A stretch of DNA of 64,000 bases. It comes from Bacteroidota bacterium. Lineage in GTDB: Bacteria; Bacteroidota; Rhodothermia; Rhodothermales; JAHQVL01. The position numbers were made by a program, and so were the translations under genes. Position 1 is the first letter of the stretch; the number at the start of each line of letters is the position of its first letter. The notes beneath the pieces were generated by a model. The model was given only the letters and a program-made list of their open reading frames with translations, did no database searches and was not told where the DNA came from. Below, piece after piece: positions 4,900 to 18,728 of this stretch. The stretch is from NCBI GenBank assembly GCA_039111535.1, contig JBCCIM010000008.1:2984-66983 (forward strand), read 5' to 3'.

Positions 4900-6732
4900 T
4901 TATTGCAGCACTACATCAAAGGTAACGCTACGATTCAGTGCGCGCTGGGCTTCTGAAGTCTCTGTGCCCGGTATAAGTTGATCGCCCTCACCAACGGCAG
5001 AAAACAAGCCGGCCGGCATGCCTCGGGCAACAAGGGCATCCCGTACGATACGAGCACGTGCGGCACTCAAGAGGGCATTGGTGTTTGGATTTCCTTCAGC
5101 ACTGGTATACCCTCTCAACAATACAGCAAGCTGCTGATTACGCGCAGCGCTAATCGTCTGAAGTGTTTCCAGCGCATCATAGACGCTATCGATCTGCTGT
5201 AATTCTGCGCTGTTTAACACGGCAGACCCTTGGCCAAACTGTACAGTTGCTGCTTCTATGGCTTCAATTGCTGCCTGGAGATCTGCATCAAGTGTGGACA
5301 CCACGCGGCTGTCGTCATATCCCGAGAATCCAAGGATAAAGGGAGATTTTTCTCTTGCGTTTTCAATCCATGAATTGGTGGCCGTCCCTGCGACATATAA
5401 TGTATCTTTCTCCAACATGAACGCAATAGACTCGGGCGCCCTCAGTTGGTTTGTAGCGCGCTTTATAATAATCAATGAATCAAGTGCCAGATAAGACTCC
5501 CACATACCGACAACCCTGTCCTGGGGAAAAGCAGATGGCAACAAAGAATCTGGATGCACCGCCATCGGGTCTTTGAGTCCTTCAACAATAAATTGCCCTT
5601 TTTCCCACGACGTCTGGGTGACAACAAGTCCCGGTTCATTGCGCAATGTTTCGAGGTACTCGTTCCAAAGCAGGTAATTGCGAAACCCCCATATCAACCA
5701 CACTGAAAGCAGCAACAGCAGCACGCCGGCGACGAACCAGAGTCGGTATGGGTTGCGGTCTTTGCGTTTATACTTTTCCAGCAAGCCGGCACGCATCAGG
5801 GGCAGCACGGGGGTCAATTGCTCTGTATCTCCCTCAAAATCATCGAGCAAGTGTCCATATTGCAAATGGATTGCTTCAATGATTTCTTTGAGCGTCAGAT
5901 TCAAATCACCCGCAGGAATGCCACGTACTACAGCTGCAAGCACAGCGTCCGGCCCCGGCTCCATCAATACTGTCAGTTCGCCAATCTTAATCGTTTCGAG
6001 AACATCCTCCCGTTCAGCACCCAGTGAATCCCGCACAAAATCCTGGATCGCACTCAACATACTCGAAACCAGGTCACTGTCTTTTACATCAACAGTTTCA
6101 GCAAAAAGGTGTTGTATCAGGATGCCACTTCGCTTGTCAATAAGGAAAAGCTGCTCAACTCGGTAATTTAGCGTATGCGCTAGCATTACCTCAGAGAACG
6201 ATCGCCCCGACCGTGCAGCTTCCATGCGCCACTTGAAGCTCTGAAACGACAGGCTATGCTCCATGGTGCGGTTCATGGAATCGATAACAGAGCGGAGTGC
6301 TTCCGCAATACTGCGTCGAATTGCAGGGCCAATTACGGGGAAAATAGCATCAGCAAACGGCTTTGGGTCGCGCCGTATGGAGATGCGAAGGGTCTCCTCT
6401 ATTGTAGGACCAAGTGCATTGGCCAATTGGGCGTTATCCTTGTTATGATAGGCAATAGCTCCAGGGAGCACCCGGCCCATTGCATCCACCTGTCCTTCTT
6501 CTTCAAACTGGGCAACAGAACTGAGGCGCTGCTGCAGGCCTTCAATTTGTTTGCCTTCACTCCCGATCAGCAGTCGACGTAGCTCATCCATGTCGCGGTC
6601 ACGGCTCTGTGTCCGATCTGGCTCACTTGCACGCTGCCCATTGGGCTGTGCTCCATTAGCCGGCGCTTCATGGTCAGAAGCAGCGGAAGTATCATCCGCA
6701 TTGGTGGGGTTATTTGAAGAATCTTCAGTCAT
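4900..6732 (-). CDS. trans-envelope OmpA/MotB-family protein: cytoplasmic helical region + longin-like domain, one TM helix, periplasmic region ending in an OmpA-like peptidoglycan-binding domain
   Basis: 610 aa; GGAGGT SD before ATG; TM LWFVAGVLLLLLSVWLIWGF (aa 331-350); C-terminal OmpA motifs VQFGQGSA, LRGYTSAEG, LSAARARIVRDAL, NRSVTF. Confidence 0.88.
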   Translation of the reverse strand: MTEDSSNNPTNADDTSAASDHEAPANGAQPNGQRASEPDRTQSRDRDMDELRRLLIGSEGKQIEGLQQRLSSVAQFEEEGQVDAMGRVLPGAIAYHNKDNAQLANALGPTIEETLRISIRRDPKPFADAIFPVIGPAIRRSIAEALRSVIDSMNRTMEHSLSFQSFKWRMEAARSGRSFSEVMLAHTLNYRVEQLFLIDKRSGILIQHLFAETVDVKDSDLVSSMLSAIQDFVRDSLGAEREDVLETIKIGELTVLMEPGPDAVLAAVVRGIPAGDLNLTLKEIIEAIHLQYGHLLDDFEGDTEQLTPVLPLMRAGLLEKYKRKDRNPYRLWFVAGVLLLLLSVWLIWGFRNYLLWNEYLETLRNEPGLVVTQTSWEKGQFIVEGLKDPMAVHPDSLLPSAFPQDRVVGMWESYLALDSLIIIKRATNQLRAPESIAFMLEKDTLYVAGTATNSWIENAREKSPFILGFSGYDDSRVVSTLDADLQAAIEAIEAATVQFGQGSAVLNSAELQQIDSVYDALETLQTISAARNQQLAVLLRGYTSAEGNPNTNALLSAARARIVRDALVARGMPAGLFSAVGEGDQLIPGTETSEAQRALNRSVTFDVVLQ

Positions 6733-6792
6733 GCTACCTCCTATTATAGCGCAACAAACGCTAAGGAGCTATGATAACGGCACACTAGCGCC

Positions 6793-7383
6793 TTATTCTG
6801 CTGCGCCGTTGGGCGCAATTTCATTTGCGAGACTGGTCAGCATGTCAGCAAACTTGCCGCGATACAGCGCACTTTGCTCCAGCTTCAATAGTGCCTGACG
6901 TAATTCCTCAGATAGGTCCTGCATATTTTCCTGCAGGTTTTGCTCAATTTCAGCGCGTTCTTCTTTCATTGCATTTTTGAACGCGGTATCCACGCTATCG
7001 AGGCGAGATTCCTGTACGGCCTTAAAGGCATCCATCGTTTCGCTCACTTTACCCAGCTCCTTTTTAAGAGCGTCTCGCTGGTTTTCGCGGTTATTGGTCT
7101 CTTTGCCCAATAATTCGAGCATTTCATCAAACTGCGCTTTAAACCGTTCTTCCATTGCCTCCAGTTGCCCGCCCACATCTGTACGGAGGGTATCGAGTGT
7201 TTTGGCCACTCTGCCTTCGAGCGCATGCATACGCTCCTCATATACTTTTATCTGTTCGCCAAAAAGTATACTGCGGACTTTTTCGAGTTCACCCATGTGC
7301 GTGTTGGTCGTTTCTCCGGGGTCTTCTTGAATGACAGTTGACAGCTCAGATTCGTCTGTCGGCTTACCGTTATTTGTAGCCAT
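6793..7383 (-). CDS. coiled-coil protein, co-oriented with the OmpA-family gene
   Basis: 196 aa, E/K/L/A/Q-rich heptad pattern across most of its length; 60-bp gap to the OmpA gene. Confidence 0.85.
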   Translation of the reverse strand: MATNNGKPTDESELSTVIQEDPGETTNTHMGELEKVRSILFGEQIKVYEERMHALEGRVAKTLDTLRTDVGGQLEAMEERFKAQFDEMLELLGKETNNRENQRDALKKELGKVSETMDAFKAVQESRLDSVDTAFKNAMKEERAEIEQNLQENMQDLSEELRQALLKLEQSALYRGKFADMLTSLANEIAPNGAAE

Positions 7384-7412
7384 AAAGAGAGATGAATAAA
7401 AAGAGGACGCAA

Positions 7413-13514: not shown

Positions 13515-15977
13515 ATGCGTACCCAAAACGAAGCGTTAGCGCCCGACGCTGCCGGCCATACAGAGATCGTCCTGCCCGTAGCAGGCATGGAGTGTGCCGC
13601 CTGTGCTGTTCGAATAGAAAAGCAGCTTTCGAAGCGCCCCGATGTATTCTTCGCTCAGGTAAACCTCGCCAACAACCAGGCGCGCGTTGCCTATAACAGC
13701 CTGCACGCCAGCCTCCAGGATCTCGTCGATACCGTGGAAAAAACGGGTTTTTCTATCCCGCATACGGTTACCCGGATCTCCCTCACTGACGGCGAGCACA
13801 CACAACAAAAACTTCAGACAATCCTGGAAGGTGTACCGGGCTTACTGGGCATATCACTACCCGAAGCTGCAGGCGCTCAACATCCAACCAGCGTTGATAT
13901 TGCCCACATCGCCGATCTGTATCCTGCAGAAGAGCTTCGGCGGCGTCTGGCCAGCCACGGCCTCACCGACCTGGCAGACACTACGCCAGCATCCCCTGCA
14001 CCAGACACGGGCACCACGCATTACACCAGGCTCCGCAATCGGTTTGCTAGTGCTGCGCTGCTCAGCCTGCCGGTTGTGATTATTTCGATGTCGCATGAGG
14101 CCATAACCTTTACAGGGGTAAATTTCTGGCTGTTTGCGCTGACCACACCCGTTGTACTCTGGGCCGGCGGGCCATTTTTTGCTACCGCGCTCCGCCTCCT
14201 GCGCTACCGAACGGCAGATATGAACTCGCTGATTGCGCTCGGTGTTGGCGCTGCATACATCTACAGCACAGCAACTACGTTTTGGCCAGCCAGGTTTATG
14301 GCTGAAACCGGCCGCCATCCCGATGTTTACTTTGAAGCCGCAGCGGTTATCATCACGTTGGTCTTGCTCGGCCGGCTGCTCGAGGCCCGGGCAAAACAAA
14401 AAACTAACGCCTCCCTCGCCCAACTACTTGCCCTGCAACCGTCCACAGCGGTTGTCATCGAAGACGGCATTGAACTTACGTTGCCGTTGACACAAGTCAC
14501 CGTAGGCATGCAGGTGCTCGTGCGACCAGGAGAACGTATCCCGCTTGATGGTAAAATTGTTGATGGTGCATCTGCGGTCGATGAAAGCATGATTACTGGC
14601 GAGCCGTTGCCAGTTGACAAGCTGATGGGTGATACTGTTGTCGGCGGCACGCTTAATCGTACTGGGGCGTTTGTCTTCGAAGTACAACGGGTTGGACAGG
14701 AGACTACGCTGCAACAAATTGTTCGCCTGGTAAAAGATGCTCAGGGCCACAAAGCACCTATCCAGAAACTGGCAGATATCGTTGCCGGCGTTTTTGTACC
14801 AGCCGTACTGGTTATCGCGATACTCACTTTTGCGACGTGGTACCTGTTTACCCAATCACTGGCCCTGTCTCTTGTAGCTTTTGTCTCCGTACTGATCATC
14901 GCCTGCCCCTGCGCGCTCGGCCTTGCAACACCAACGGCTGTAATGGTGGCTACAGGCAAAGCAGCTGAGTACGGGATCCTGATCAAAGGCGGCGACACCC
15001 TTGAGAAGCTGCCAAAAATTTCCAAAATAGTACTGGATAAAACAGGCACCTTAACGGCCGGCAATCCGCGTTTAGTGGCCTTCGAGGCGGTAGGTACCCA
15101 CCTCACACCCGCACGCATCTTACAACTTGCCGGCTCGGCAGAACAGCGATCAGAACACCCGCTTGCGCAGGCTGTACTGGCTTATGTGGAAGCACAGGGG
15201 GTAGAATTACTGCCTGTCACCACCTTCAACAGTGTAACTGGCTCAGGCATAGAGGCAACGGTTGACCATACAACCATCCATATTGGAAATGCCGATTACA
15301 TCAGCAGCAGACATATTGCTTCAGATGGCTGGCAGCAGGCTTATGCTGAGGCACAGACCGCGGGTCACACAGCCATTCTTGTTGCCATTGATGGCGTTGT
15401 TGCAGGCGTTATGTCGATCAGTGACGCACTTCGCCCCTCAACTGAAGCAGGGATTGCAGCTATTCGATCGCAGGGTATTGCAGTGGCCATGCTAACAGGA
15501 GACCAGGAGGTCACGGCCCACGCCATTGCTGCAGAAGCAGGTATTGAAGAAGTCTACGCCGGCGTCAAGCCATCAGAAAAAGCAGCCCATGTTTTATCGA
15601 TGCAACAGGCAGGTGATGTTGTAGCCATGGTCGGCGATGGAATCAACGATGCGCCGGCACTTGCAACAGCCGACCTTGGCATTGCCATTGGTGCCGGTAC
15701 TGATGTAGCTATCGAAACCAGCGACATTACGCTTATGCGGGACGATATCAAAACCGTCTCACAGGCCATTTCGATTGCACGACAGGCCATGCGAACCATC
15801 AAACAAAACCTGTTCTTTGCCTTTATCTATAATGTGATTGGCATCCCCATCGCAGCCGGCGTCTTGTTTCCGATATGGGGCATCACCCTCAACCCGATGA
15901 TTGCCTCAGCTGCGATGGCGTTTTCGAGTGTTTCCGTTATCACCAACAGCTTGCGACTGCGTCGCTGGCAACCTTAA
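13515..15977 (+). CDS. copA: Cu(I)-translocating P1B-1 ATPase
   Basis: [17 protein letters not shown] in TM, DKTGT phosphorylation site, SEHPLA, GDGIND, YN and MAFSS motifs. Confidence 0.95.
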
Positions 15978-15988
15978 CGCTAAAGATT

Positions 15989-16198
15989 ATGAGCACACAA
16001 AAAGAAACCATACACATTGATGGCATGAGCTGTGGACATTGCGTGTCTACGGTCAAAAACGCTTTAGAAGCTACTGCCGGCGTTGATGTGGAGCACGTAG
16101 AAATTGGCAAAGCGCAGGTACAGTTCGACACCACGCAGGTTTCTGCGGCGCAGCTTGCCTCAGTTGTGGAAGACCTCGGCTTTGAAGTAAAAGCCTGA
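15989..16198 (+). CDS. copZ: copper chaperone (HMA domain)
   Basis: MSTQKETIHIDGMSCGHCV, 69 aa, 11 nt after the copA stop. Confidence 0.92.
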   Translation: MSTQKETIHIDGMSCGHCVSTVKNALEATAGVDVEHVEIGKAQVQFDTTQVSAAQLASVVEDLGFEVKA

Positions 16199-16219
16199 GT
16201 ACCAACGCAAGGTACTCAG
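16195..16219. terminator. hairpin between convergent copZ and SDR genes
   Basis: Perfect 9-bp stem CTGAGTACC-AACGCAA-GGTACTCAG; weak U tract. Confidence 0.5.
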
Positions 16220-16229
16220 TTGTAAAAGA

Positions 16230-16931
16230 TCAAATATCGCCTTGCTGTGGGCGCAGGACGATCTCTTCTACAACGGTACGGTCTGACATATGATAGATGT
16301 CGAGCACTGCCTTGGCAATGTCTGTTGCCGGCATGAACCGTTCTTCTGGTAATTCAACACCATCCCAACTCGGCGTTAGTGTCGCACCGGGCAACAGGGT
16401 CGTTACCCGAATCCCTGTATTACGCGTTTCTTCGCGCACACTGCGTGCAAGGCCAAGTAGTCCGTGTTTGGCTGCGCAATACGCAGCACCGCCCGGGTAG
16501 GCTTTCAAGGCAGCAACGGAGGCCATATAGAAAATAGCGCCACTGTTGCGATCCAGCATCGGTTTGAGGAATTGCTGCGTCACACTGAAGGCGCTGACAA
16601 GATTCACATCTACTTGCTGCCGAAACGAAGCCAGCGTGGTTTCAAGCAGCGAACCCGGCTGAAAAACGCCGGCATTGTTGACCAGCACATCGGGCGCTCC
16701 CCACTTTTCCATGACAGCTAGAGCCATAGCGGCCACAGCAGCTTCATCGGTCACATCACACGGAAAAGCGGCAGCATCCGCACCCCGTGCGCTACAGGCC
16801 TTTACCACCTGCACCAGCTTTTCCTCATTGCGGGCAACCAGCGCAATGCGAGCATCTGCCTCCTGTGCAAATGCCTCGGCAATGGCACGGCCTATTCCCT
16901 GGCTTGCGCCGGTTACAACAAATACTGGCAT
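16230..16931 (-). CDS. SDR oxidoreductase, probable sepiapterin reductase (Chlorobium type)
   Basis: TGASQGIG, NNAG, YCAAK; C-terminus RTVVEEIVLRPQQGDI; start is 1 nt after the folE stop (TAA-T-ATG). Confidence 0.8.
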   Translation of the reverse strand: MPVFVVTGASQGIGRAIAEAFAQEADARIALVARNEEKLVQVVKACSARGADAAAFPCDVTDEAAVAAMALAVMEKWGAPDVLVNNAGVFQPGSLLETTLASFRQQVDVNLVSAFSVTQQFLKPMLDRNSGAIFYMASVAALKAYPGGAAYCAAKHGLLGLARSVREETRNTGIRVTTLLPGATLTPSWDGVELPEERFMPATDIAKAVLDIYHMSDRTVVEEIVLRPQQGDI

Positions 16932-16932
16932 A

Positions 16933-17556
16933 TTACCTGGCTCCTATCAGTCGCATAAATTCAAAACGGGTGGCATCTTTGTGGAATTCACCACTTACAC
17001 AACTGGTCGTTGTCAGGGAATTCTGTTTCTCCGCACCACGCATCATCATGCACAAGTGTTGTGCTTCAATGACCACGGCAACACCAAGCGGCTTGAGCAC
17101 GCGGTCAATGGCTTCACGTATCTGGAGCGTTAACCGTTCCTGTACCTGTAGCCGGCGCGCAAAAACATCCACAACACGTGGAATTTTGCTTAATCCAACA
17201 ATTTTGCCATTCGGAATATAGGCCACATGCGCCTTCCCAAAAAAGGGCAGCATATGATGTTCGCACAGCGAATAAACTTCGATGTCTTTAACAACAATCA
17301 TTTCGCTGTAGCTTTCCTCAAACAGGGCTTTGCGTAGCACTTCGTCCGGATCCATCTGGTATCCATGCGTCAGGAACTGGTAAGCTTTTGCGACCCGTTC
17401 CGGTGTTTTGAGCAGCCCCTCCCTTGCTACATCTTCCCCCAGGTCCGTAATGATCTCTTTTACCTGGCCGGCAAGACGATCCGTCACCTCTTCATTGTAA
17501 TGGTCTTCACGTCTGTAAAGCACTTCGCGTTTGTTATTTGCTTTTTTCGCTGCCAT
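16933..17556 (-). CDS. folE: GTP cyclohydrolase I (type IA)
   Basis: [51 protein letters not shown]. Confidence 0.97.
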
Positions 17557-17764
17557 CTATTTCAGTATTGTTTGATGCAAACCAGAGATTTGAAGACACG
17601 ATCGATGTGTTTACGTATCGCTGTGCTTCTGTTTTGCGCTATTCCGGTCCTGGTAAAGACGCTAAGAAAGCGCATCAATCGGCATTCAATTTGATCCTAA
17701 ATTCGCATGTTTGTCTAATCAGTATTCACCAGATGAGTAATAAGGCATGTGATAGACGCTGATC

Positions 17765-18178
17765 TTATTCGCCGCGGTATTCAGCCATATTGCGCTCGGT
17801 TTCAAACAACCGGATGCAATGTAGCTTGCCAGCAGGCAGAGCTTCTTCAAGTTGCTGCCAGATCGCCACTACAAAATTCTCCGTAGAAGGCATGATCCCA
17901 TGCATGAAGTCAACATCTATGTTCAGGTTTGCGTGGTCCACTTTATCAACAACACGTTCTGCCATTACCTTTTTGAGCAAACCAAGGTCAATTACATATC
18001 CGGTTTCGGGGTCCGGCTCGCCGGCTACCGTTACTTCGAGGAGATAATTGTGACCATGCCAATTGGGGTTATTACACTTCCCAAACATATCCCGATTCCA
18101 CGCATCCGATTTGTTCGGATTGTGCAGACGGTGTGCTGCATTAAAGTGCGCTTTACGCGTTACATAAACGAGTGGCAT
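17765..18178 (-). CDS. 6-pyruvoyl-tetrahydropterin synthase, PTPS-II (animal-like) subtype
   Basis: FNAAHRL, C-X5-HGH motif (CNNPNWHGHNY), DHANLN, STEN, LFETERN. Confidence 0.9.
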   Translation of the reverse strand: MPLVYVTRKAHFNAAHRLHNPNKSDAWNRDMFGKCNNPNWHGHNYLLEVTVAGEPDPETGYVIDLGLLKKVMAERVVDKVDHANLNIDVDFMHGIMPSTENFVVAIWQQLEEALPAGKLHCIRLFETERNMAEYRGE

Positions 18179-18383: not shown

Positions 18384-18728
18384 ATGGCAGAAAAAACGCT
18401 TTTCGAAAAAATTGCAGACCGGGAAATCCCCGCAGATCTCGTCTATGAAGATGACCTGTGTATCGCATTTCGCGATATTCATCCGCAGGCACCCACACAC
18501 ATTCTAATTGTACCCAGAAAACCTATCCCAACGCTCGACGCTCTTGAACCGGCAGATGAACAACTGGTGGGACACCTTTTTCTGGTTGCAAAAAAGATTG
18601 CGAAGCAGGAAGGCCTGACCAATGGGTATCGGACCGTTTTTAACTGCGGTGAGGAAGCAGGACAAACCGTTTTCCATATCCACCTGCACTTGCTTGGCGG
18701 CCGGCCGCTGGCGTGGCCTCCGGGTTAA
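18384..18728 (+). CDS. hinT: histidine triad nucleotide-binding protein
   Basis: TLFEKI, PQAPTHILIVP, HIHLHLLGG. Confidence 0.95.
   Translation: MAEKTLFEKIADREIPADLVYEDDLCIAFRDIHPQAPTHILIVPRKPIPTLDALEPADEQLVGHLFLVAKKIAKQEGLTNGYRTVFNCGEEAGQTVFHIHLHLLGGRPLAWPPG

Follow-up and report, generated by a model that had tools for sequence, protein, structure and literature searches.

To our knowledge, the synthesis of biopterin by bacteria has been demonstrated experimentally only in a handful of species, among the cyanobacteria and the green sulfur bacteria. Chlorobium tepidum makes the L-threo form of tetrahydrobiopterin, the L-erythro form being that of animals and of C. limicola, and its pathway comprises GTP cyclohydrolase I, 6-pyruvoyl-tetrahydropterin synthase (PTPS), the sepiapterin reductase cSR (PDB entry 2BD0), and the pteridine glycosyltransferase CtPGT; the reductase gene does not lie within 6 kb of the genes for PTPS or FolE. 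The animal route (GCH1-PTS-SPR) ends with a reductase of the SPR family. The cyanobacterial tetrahydrobiopterin-glucoside pathway, as in Synechococcus PCC 7942, has a PTPS of type II (PTPS-II), found beside another COG0720 paralogue, and a glycosyltransferase, BGluT/PgtA (PMC5041015), and the use of pterin in bacteria is known to extend beyond hydroxylases (PMC3546692). Within the order Rhodothermales, Rhodothermus marinus has at least two PTPS genes, which differ in their conserved gene contexts, as far as the legend of one published figure goes (PMC5041015, Zallot et al. 2016, Figure 3 legend; Phillips et al. 2012); the figure itself shows the gene contexts that tie PTPS-I, -II, and -III to their pathways. 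Since R. marinus is named in that legend for its PTPS gene contexts, the operon described below is of a kind already described in related bacteria.

The locus that we have analyzed belongs to another member of the Rhodothermales, whose genome is twice the size of that of R. marinus, and it lies in a window of 64,000 nucleotides (the whole stretch of DNA under analysis). The three enzyme families that C. tepidum shares with this organism are encoded here by adjacent genes of one putative operon, whereas in C. tepidum the reductase gene stands apart; the animal genes, too, differ in this respect. The features of the locus, in window coordinates, are as follows.

16195..16219, no strand assigned: perfect 9-bp-stem hairpin between convergent copZ and the reductase gene; a terminator-like site on the minus strand, 11 nt past the reductase stop codon
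16230..16931, minus strand: NADP-type short-chain reductase (SDR), putative homologue of the Chlorobium-type sepiapterin reductase, 233 aa; best match PDB 2BD0
16933..17556, minus strand: predicted GTP cyclohydrolase I, FolE, 207 aa; TIGR00063, 256 bits
17557..17764, no strand assigned: spacer between PTPS and folE, 208 bp, not conserved
17765..18178, minus strand: predicted PTPS-II type 6-pyruvoyl-tetrahydropterin synthase, 137 aa; Pfam PTPS, 124 bits
18179..18383, no strand assigned: intergenic region upstream of both PTPS and the divergently oriented HIT gene; presumed, from position alone, to hold a promoter
18384..18728, plus strand: HIT-family (HinT-like) gene, a divergent conserved neighbor; NCBIfam purine nucleoside phosphoramidase, 140 bits, below the cut-off

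The original prediction placed three co-oriented genes here, with folE and SDR coupled, and the open reading frames bear this out. They follow one another on the minus strand (PTPS 18178..17765, folE 17556..16933, SDR 16931..16230), and at the folE/SDR junction, which reads AGG TAA T ATG, a single base separates the folE stop codon from the SDR start codon, with an AGGAG 9 nt upstream. We suppose that the three genes are co-transcribed and that the hairpin is likely a two-way terminator that ends the operon. Scans of the locus for sigma-70 and Bacteroidetes-type promoters, which took in the spacer and the region upstream of PTPS, gave no convincing consensus. A riboswitch or other RNA element in the spacer between PTPS and folE was considered and rejected: the 208 bp have no Rfam match, and their sequence and length vary within the genus, the unaligned gap being ~46-91 nt in two same-genus genomes whose DNA cannot be aligned with this spacer.

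The motif that had been read in PTPS (CNNPNWHGHNY) is indeed found at C35-H43, as C35-NNPNW-H41-G-H43, and it has the C-x5-HGH form that the published rule gives as the signature of PTPS-II (PMC5041015). The best PDB matches of the protein are the human (3I2B, E 3e-38) and rat (1B66, E 9e-38) enzymes, both aligned end to end without a gap, and the QueD structures in the same search reach only ~1e-8. Residues H16, H41, H43, C35, D81-H82, and E126 align with H23, H48, H50, C42, D88-H89, and E133 of the rat protein, which we take to be its catalytic and zinc residues; all seven such residues of animal PTPS (three zinc histidines, the cysteine, the Asp-His pair, and the glutamate) are retained. 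Identity to the C. tepidum PTPS is 46%. As in R. marinus, so far as the legend cited above describes it, and as in the cyanobacterial case, a second COG0720 paralogue occurs elsewhere in the genome, in a different gene context. Motif, residues, similarity to animal PTPS, and clustering with SDR together support the prediction that this protein is a PTPS-II (EC 4.2.3.12).

Judged from its sequence, the folE product is a genuine GTP cyclohydrolase I: its score with the equivalog model TIGR00063, 256 bits, exceeds the cut-off of 182, and it carries the Cys-His-Cys zinc site as CEHH at residue 98 and HLC at residue 167. It is also the single PF01227 match in the 6.6-Mb assembly and, as the sole GTP cyclohydrolase I of the genome, would supply folate synthesis via FolB as well.

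The assignment of SDR draws on several kinds of comparison. When the protein is set against characterized sepiapterin reductases, as had been proposed, it and cSR prove to be reciprocal best hits (149 bits versus 102) with ~38% identity (tblastn), and 2BD0 is the top sequence match in the PDB (E 7e-41, 143 bits; the next match, 108). The AlphaFold model (pLDDT 96.5) likewise has 2BD0 as its top Foldseek match (TM 0.97, rmsd 1.3 A). A glycine motif TGASQGIG (TGxxxGIG) together with R34 marks the protein as NADP-type, and the catalytic triad S138-Y151-K155 is present. W189 corresponds to W196 of cSR, a residue that forms part of the sepiapterin sandwich (PMC7520308), and it is invariant across a 59-sequence alignment. 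The other sandwich residue of cSR, Phe-99, has Pro-92 as its counterpart here; two residues before this proline stands Phe-90, which is invariant in all 21 SDR orthologues compared. The loop reads NNAG-V-F-Q-P in SDR and NNAG-V-G-R-F in cSR. The C-terminus, RTVVEEIVLRPQQGDI, contains a motif common to SDR and cSR. The ending given for the Chlorobium enzyme in the original prediction, RTVVEEIILRPTSGDI, is real, being present in the 2BD0 alignment and in the C. tepidum genome, yet the protein continues for three residues beyond it. In a phylogenetic tree, SDR and its relatives form a clade (99% SH-aLRT) beside the cSR clade of the Chlorobia; both fall inside a clade with 95% support, outside which five of the six paralogues of this genome are placed. 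The branches are long, and the tree does not resolve strict sisterhood between the two clades.

No animal SPR appears among the 60 PDB sequence matches listed for SDR (the best of 675) or among the Foldseek matches of its model listed down to rank 50. The description of the pathway as eukaryote-style thus stands for PTPS, which is animal-like, and not for the reductase; the first two enzymes and the chemistry would be those of the animal route, and the third is supported as a probable bacterial, Chlorobium-type sepiapterin reductase (EC 1.1.1.325) outside the animal SPR family. With that qualification, sequence, structure prediction, and comparative genomics all agree with the three gene assignments originally made. 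The stereochemistry of the product is a separate matter, on which sequence cannot tell L-erythro from L-threo. Since Phe-99 of cSR is not matched in position, the claim of an L-threo product finds no support in SDR, and the displaced phenylalanine could mean that its product isomer is unlike that of C. tepidum.

The adjacency of the three genes is not due to chance. In a synteny sample of 46 distinct genomes (45 from the Rhodothermales and one from a neighboring order), 32 have folE on the strand of SDR and less than 200 nt upstream of it, and 35 have PTPS no farther than 2.5 kb away. The order SDR-folE-PTPS is held in most families of the Rhodothermales, including a genome that we take to be Rhodothermus (SDR 67-68% identical). 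An SDR orthologue is present in 135 of 149 same-order genomes (~90%) and PTPS-II in 148 of the 149. PTPS-II is also present in each of five tested Bacteroidota genomes that have a reductase of the SDR or cSR clade, C. tepidum among them; elsewhere in the Bacteroidota, most members of the SDR clade do not adjoin PTPS or folE. In many Rhodothermales loci the trio is followed by the HIT gene, a gene for an outer-membrane protein, and coaE, in that order. The possibility of a pterin user encoded beside the operon was rejected, the only conserved neighbors being HIT, the outer-membrane protein, coaE, ribBA, and yajC.

We suggest, with a probability of about 80%, that PTPS, folE, and SDR are organized as an operon whose products build a tetrahydrobiopterin-type pterin de novo from GTP. 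FolE would convert GTP to 7,8-dihydroneopterin triphosphate; PTPS-II would eliminate the triphosphate and rearrange the side chain to yield 6-pyruvoyl-tetrahydropterin; and SDR, translationally coupled to folE, would reduce both carbonyls of the side chain with NADPH, giving tetrahydrobiopterin. The user is likely a long-form phenylalanine hydroxylase (PAH) encoded on another contig, with a pterin-4a-carbinolamine dehydratase (PCD) for recycling.

That no enzyme using tetrahydrobiopterin would be found in the window was part of the original prediction, and the window in fact contains no Biopterin_H or NOS domain. The same prediction left the consumer open among several candidates; this holds for the window, but other contigs of the genome supply candidates. 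The long PAH matches 7VGM (E 9e-124), its alignment shows the iron ligands H-x4-H and Glu, and it lies on a 4.6-kb contig whose end truncates it. The PCD (115 bits) is on another contig. The genome-wide search for users that had been recommended thus recovered PAH; it found no NOS and no CtPGT orthologue, the best match to CtPGT being partial, at 52 bits. C. tepidum, in contrast, has CtPGT, and the cyanobacterial pathway has BGluT/PgtA, whereas no glycosyltransferase is linked to the operon here. A PF13528 glycosyltransferase on another contig was rejected as a candidate pteridine glycosyltransferase: it is a member of the MJ1255 family without a PDB relative, and authentic CtPGT, a GT4 protein, does not match it. 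Homogentisate dioxygenase (HgmA) was not found in the genome, which argues against PAH as the entry to the classical catabolic route, and phenylalanine catabolism via homogentisate was rejected on this ground.

The link between PAH and the operon is weak. Across the order, a short PAH occurs in 98 of 151 genomes. Several genera keep the operon and have no PAH (aromatic amino acid hydroxylase in 0/7, 0/11, and 0/11 genomes), and some keep PAH and have no SDR of this type. Reciprocal-best-hit homologues of C. tepidum CtPGT are present in 18 of the 151 genomes, including 7/7 of one PAH-less genus; in these relatives the CtPGT-like genes have an SDR gene as a neighbor, together with GH130 and debranching-like genes, so that a role with pterin is suggested for them by the reciprocal best hits alone. 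The Rhodothermus-like genus, which differs from our genome in both family and genus, has a CtPGT-like GT4 and no PAH, whereas our genome has the long PAH and no such transferase. It is a puzzle that whole genera retain the operon with no recognizable pterin user.

Part of this pattern is what would be expected if the operon made a pterin other than tetrahydrobiopterin itself, either an intermediate in which reduction is incomplete (6-lactoyl- or 1'-oxo-2'-hydroxypropyl-tetrahydropterin) or else a modified, for example glycosylated, precursor that served in photoprotection, in signaling, or with an unknown enzyme rather than in phenylalanine hydroxylation. The genera that have SDR and PTPS and no hydroxylase, the CtPGT homologues of the PAH-less genus, and the absence of a phenylalanine at the Phe-99 position of SDR are all compatible with such a product. 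We nevertheless consider it unlikely for this organism: PAH and PCD are both in the genome and a CtPGT orthologue is not, SDR has an intact catalytic triad and pterin-pocket tryptophan, and enzymes of the cSR type reduce both carbonyls. For the Rhodothermales as a whole, we can entertain, tentatively, the possibility that the main role of the pterin is neither phenylalanine hydroxylation nor the known glycoside, and that it serves an undescribed pterin-dependent enzyme, signaling, or photoprotection. PTPS-II and SDR are retained, with neither an aromatic amino acid hydroxylase nor a CtPGT-like transferase, in three genera (11, 11, and 2 of the genomes sampled from the order). Two further points in favor are the genera that have a PAH and no SDR of this type, and the PAH of our own genome, a swapped-in long form that feeds no homogentisate pathway.

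Other explanations would remove either the pathway or its user. COG0720 proteins are often promiscuous and misannotated (PMC5041015), PTPS scores 69 bits with the QueD model TIGR03367 (below its cut-off of 89), and numerous FabG-like models match SDR, all below their cut-offs; PTPS might on these grounds be a QueD or a PTPS-III, and SDR an unrelated housekeeping ketoreductase that merely lies beside folE. QueD (PTPS-I) does share the fold, the zinc site, and the substrate dihydroneopterin triphosphate with our PTPS, but it has C-x3-HGH and works with QueC and QueE. Here the motif is neither C-x3-HGH nor the E-x2-HGH of PTPS-III, an enzyme that usually takes the place of FolB; a proline stands three positions before HGH, and the similarity to animal PTPS exceeds that to QueD by ~30 orders of magnitude. 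QueC was not found in this 97.6%-complete genome, and FolB is present, which makes a PTPS-III bypass unneeded; a role in queuosine or folate synthesis is therefore unlikely, and both were rejected. The coupling of SDR to folE, moreover, is kept in many families of the order, and we give the combined alternative almost no credence. It is also highly improbable that the contig bearing the long PAH is a contaminant, which would leave the organism without any pterin user. The contig is short and its end cuts the gene, whose only close relatives in a survey of the class (at most 71% identity) belong to another order; against this, the GC content and tetranucleotides of the contig are typical of the genome (72nd percentile), the long PAH and its HI0933-like neighbor recur together on a 739-kb contig of a same-genus genome, and estimated contamination is 0.06%. 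We rejected contamination, the composition being typical and the PAH native to the genus.

These findings leave the current understanding of the pathway unchanged. To judge in part from named homologues, the genes are probably present as well in two cultured species, R. marinus and Salinibacter ruber. Public records call the reductase only "SDR family oxidoreductase"; the name "Chlorobium-type sepiapterin reductase" would better annotate the gene in ~90% of the sampled Rhodothermales genomes, and an operon that extends across the order would offer a convenient system in which to study both the bacterial use of this cofactor and the choice between its erythro and threo forms.

The genes for PTPS, FolE and a short-chain reductase (SDR) lie on contig JBCCIM010000008.1, of which the window is part, in a 6.59-Mb assembly of 355 contigs (completeness 97.6%, contamination 0.06%) that named homologues assign to the Rhodothermales. 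The layout is as follows:

18178..17765, minus strand, PTPS, open reading frame with Pfam PTPS match
17556..16933, minus strand, folE, open reading frame, TIGR00063 equivalog
16931..16230, minus strand, SDR, open reading frame, homologue of Chlorobium tepidum sepiapterin reductase (cSR)
16195-16219, perfect hairpin between the SDR gene and the convergent copZ

The co-orientation and the folE-SDR coupling described in the original prediction are both plain in the sequence: the folE stop and SDR start are joined as TAA-T-ATG, with an AGGAG within the 3′ end of folE. We put the probability at about 80% that the trio encodes a tetrahydrobiopterin (BH4)-type biosynthesis pathway, the chemistry of which would be the textbook GTPCH-I/PTPS/SR route. 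This is an operon of an already known kind, correctly recognised, in a new genome; some 50 bacteria have been predicted to make BH4 from the co-occurrence of PTPS and SR (Zallot et al., PMC5041015). The spacer between PTPS and folE, 208 bp long, found no match in an Rfam search. Two genomes of the same genus have a shorter one that cannot be aligned with it, so this is no conserved element. Convergent to the SDR gene are genes for a CopA-like copper P-type ATPase (820 aa) and a small CopZ-like metallochaperone (MxCxxC), at 13515-16198, and the hairpin is common to both sides; the long copZ reading frame (15875-16198) probably has its true start at an internal ATG.

The PTPS (Pfam PTPS, 124 bits) carries C35-NNPNW-H41GH43, and the reading of C-x5-HGH as the mark of the BH4 type (PTPS-II) is as published, QueD having C-x3-HGH and the folate-bypass PTPS-III having E-x2-HGH (Zallot et al., PMC5041015). 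In a PDB sequence search the alignments to human (3I2B, E 3e-38) and rat PTPS (1B66) spanned the entire protein and had no gaps, whereas QueD structures reached only about 1e-8. Residues H16, C35, H41, H43, D81-H82 and E126 align with the zinc-binding and catalytic residues of rat PTPS at a constant offset of 7. A QueD role is further disfavored in that the assembly search returned no QueC, and a PTPS-III bypass would be superfluous in a genome that encodes FolB; neither role is needed or likely. FolE clears the TIGR00063 equivalog cut-off with its zinc site (CEHH/Cys) present and, as the sole PF01227 gene in the assembly, must supply both folate synthesis and the pterin branch.

Contig C234 encodes another COG0720 paralogue (125 aa, motif C-GPENIL-HSH, under every NCBIfam cut-off); the Figure 3 legend of Zallot et al. 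(PMC5041015) likewise lists Rhodothermus marinus among organisms with several PTPS genes, each in a conserved context of its own. The paralogue belongs to a row of four co-oriented genes (L002:547-3327, minus strand) with a BchC-like zinc dehydrogenase, a RibD-C-terminal-like pyrimidine reductase and a 312-aa protein that had no NCBIfam match. A pathway of pterin or deazaflavin type, so far uncharacterised, may be encoded here.

The expected resemblance of the SDR to the Chlorobium enzyme is borne out by comparison with characterised reductases: among all PDB sequences its best match is cSR (2BD0; E 7e-41, 143 bits, 35 bits over the next SDR), in a full-length alignment that includes the C-terminal motif on which that expectation rested. 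This type of reductase has reportedly been purified from C. tepidum and its structure solved. The cSR gene itself was found at L089:6068-6802 (minus strand), in a genome, presumably that of C. tepidum TLS, with the exact C-terminal motif; searched against the present genome, cSR retrieved the window SDR at 149 bits, with 102 for the next protein. A Foldseek search with the AlphaFold model (pLDDT 96.5) also ranks 2BD0 first (TM 0.97, rmsd 1.3 Å). A tree that took in six of this genome's own paralogues unites the SDRs of Rhodothermales with homologues of other Bacteroidota in one clade (99% support). Beside it stands the Chlorobia cSR clade (96%), and both fall within a 95%-support branch in which the exact sister order is not settled. 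Animal sepiapterin reductase is absent from the best 60 of 675 PDB sequence matches and from the listed Foldseek matches to rank 50, so that "eukaryote-style" suits the PTPS but not the reductase. The SDR carries the triad S138-Y151-K155, TGASQGIG and R34. In cSR, sepiapterin is reported to be held by Phe-99 and Trp-196 (PMC7520308). The Trp has an equivalent here, W189, invariant in a 59-sequence alignment; Phe-99 aligns to Pro-92, with a Phe two residues earlier in 21/21 orthologues, and the product isomer is therefore not predictable from sequence.

Across a 301-genome sample of the class, PTPS-II is present in 286 genomes, including 148 of the 149 from the same order; clear SDR orthologues (at least 49% identity) are present in 135 of those 149. 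Among 46 distinct genomes with flanking DNA, folE lies <200 nt upstream of the SDR gene in 32, and PTPS is no more than 2.5 kb away in 35; where clustered, the genes invariably run SDR < folE < PTPS. The usual neighbours are HIT, an outer-membrane protein, coaE, ribBA and yajC, and no pterin user is among the common ones. Beyond the class, members of this SDR clade mostly do not adjoin PTPS or folE; PTPS-II is nevertheless present in all five tested genomes with an SDR of this or the neighbouring cSR clade, C. tepidum included. In another Bacteroidota family (locus L105, G423:C1:1410700-1423500, positions 4984-7412), PTPS-folE-SDR is extended by an additional SDR in tandem, which groups with general paralogues, not with the cSR-like clade.

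The consumer of the pterin had been left open, and a candidate can now be named. A Biopterin_H protein, its N-terminus lost at the end of the 4.6-kb contig C310 (L003:616-2199, minus strand), matches a 592-aa "phenylalanine-4-hydroxylase" (7VGM) at E 9e-124; H-x4-H and Glu can be made out in the alignment. Contamination is rejected, and the gene is native: its contig has a composition typical of this genome, and the same long phenylalanine hydroxylase (PAH), with the same HI0933-like neighbour, occurs on a 739-kb contig of a same-genus genome. A gene for pterin-4a-carbinolamine dehydratase (PCD) is present; searches of the genome found no NOS, no homogentisate dioxygenase and no orthologue of the C. 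tepidum pteridine glycosyltransferase (CtPGT), the gene for which was located through its published primers (PMC5683033). An MJ1255/VC2487-family glycosyltransferase (PF13528; contig C15, L008:1486-2604, plus strand) has no solved relative; it was weighed as a pterin glycosyltransferase and dismissed. We give roughly even odds that PAH is the main pterin user here. Long (about 600 aa, 7VGM-like) in this genus, PAH is short (about 280 aa, PhhA-type) in sister genera, which are among the 98 of 151 order genomes with the short form; the class survey found the long form elsewhere only in other orders (best 71% identity). The genus thus seems to have swapped one for the other, in what looks like replacement by lateral transfer. 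Examples of these genes and of CtPGT-like genes are:

L057:7330-9141 (genome G326), minus strand, long PAH, same genus
L120:1486-2517, minus strand, CtPGT-like GT4
L115:1489-2592, plus strand, CtPGT-like GT4

Four genera keep the operon genes without PAH (0/7, 0/11, 0/11 and 0/2 genomes; 0/7, 0/13, 2/13 and 0/3 in their families). Reciprocal-best-hit CtPGT homologues, GT4 glycosyltransferases 38-52% identical to CtPGT, occur in 18 of 151 order genomes and in 7/7 of one PAH-less genus. They adjoin a GH130 phosphorylase, a debranching-enzyme-like gene and an SDR; with sugar-metabolism genes alongside, the acceptor is uncertain and a pterin role would be putative. The other three PAH-less genera (11, 11 and 2 genomes) retain PTPS-II and a cSR-like SDR, with no aromatic amino acid hydroxylase and no CtPGT-like gene; in one of them, g13, the SDR gene also stands apart from folE and PTPS. 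What remains of interest in this pathway is thus the isomer that it makes and the function that the pterin serves in lineages without a recognisable user.
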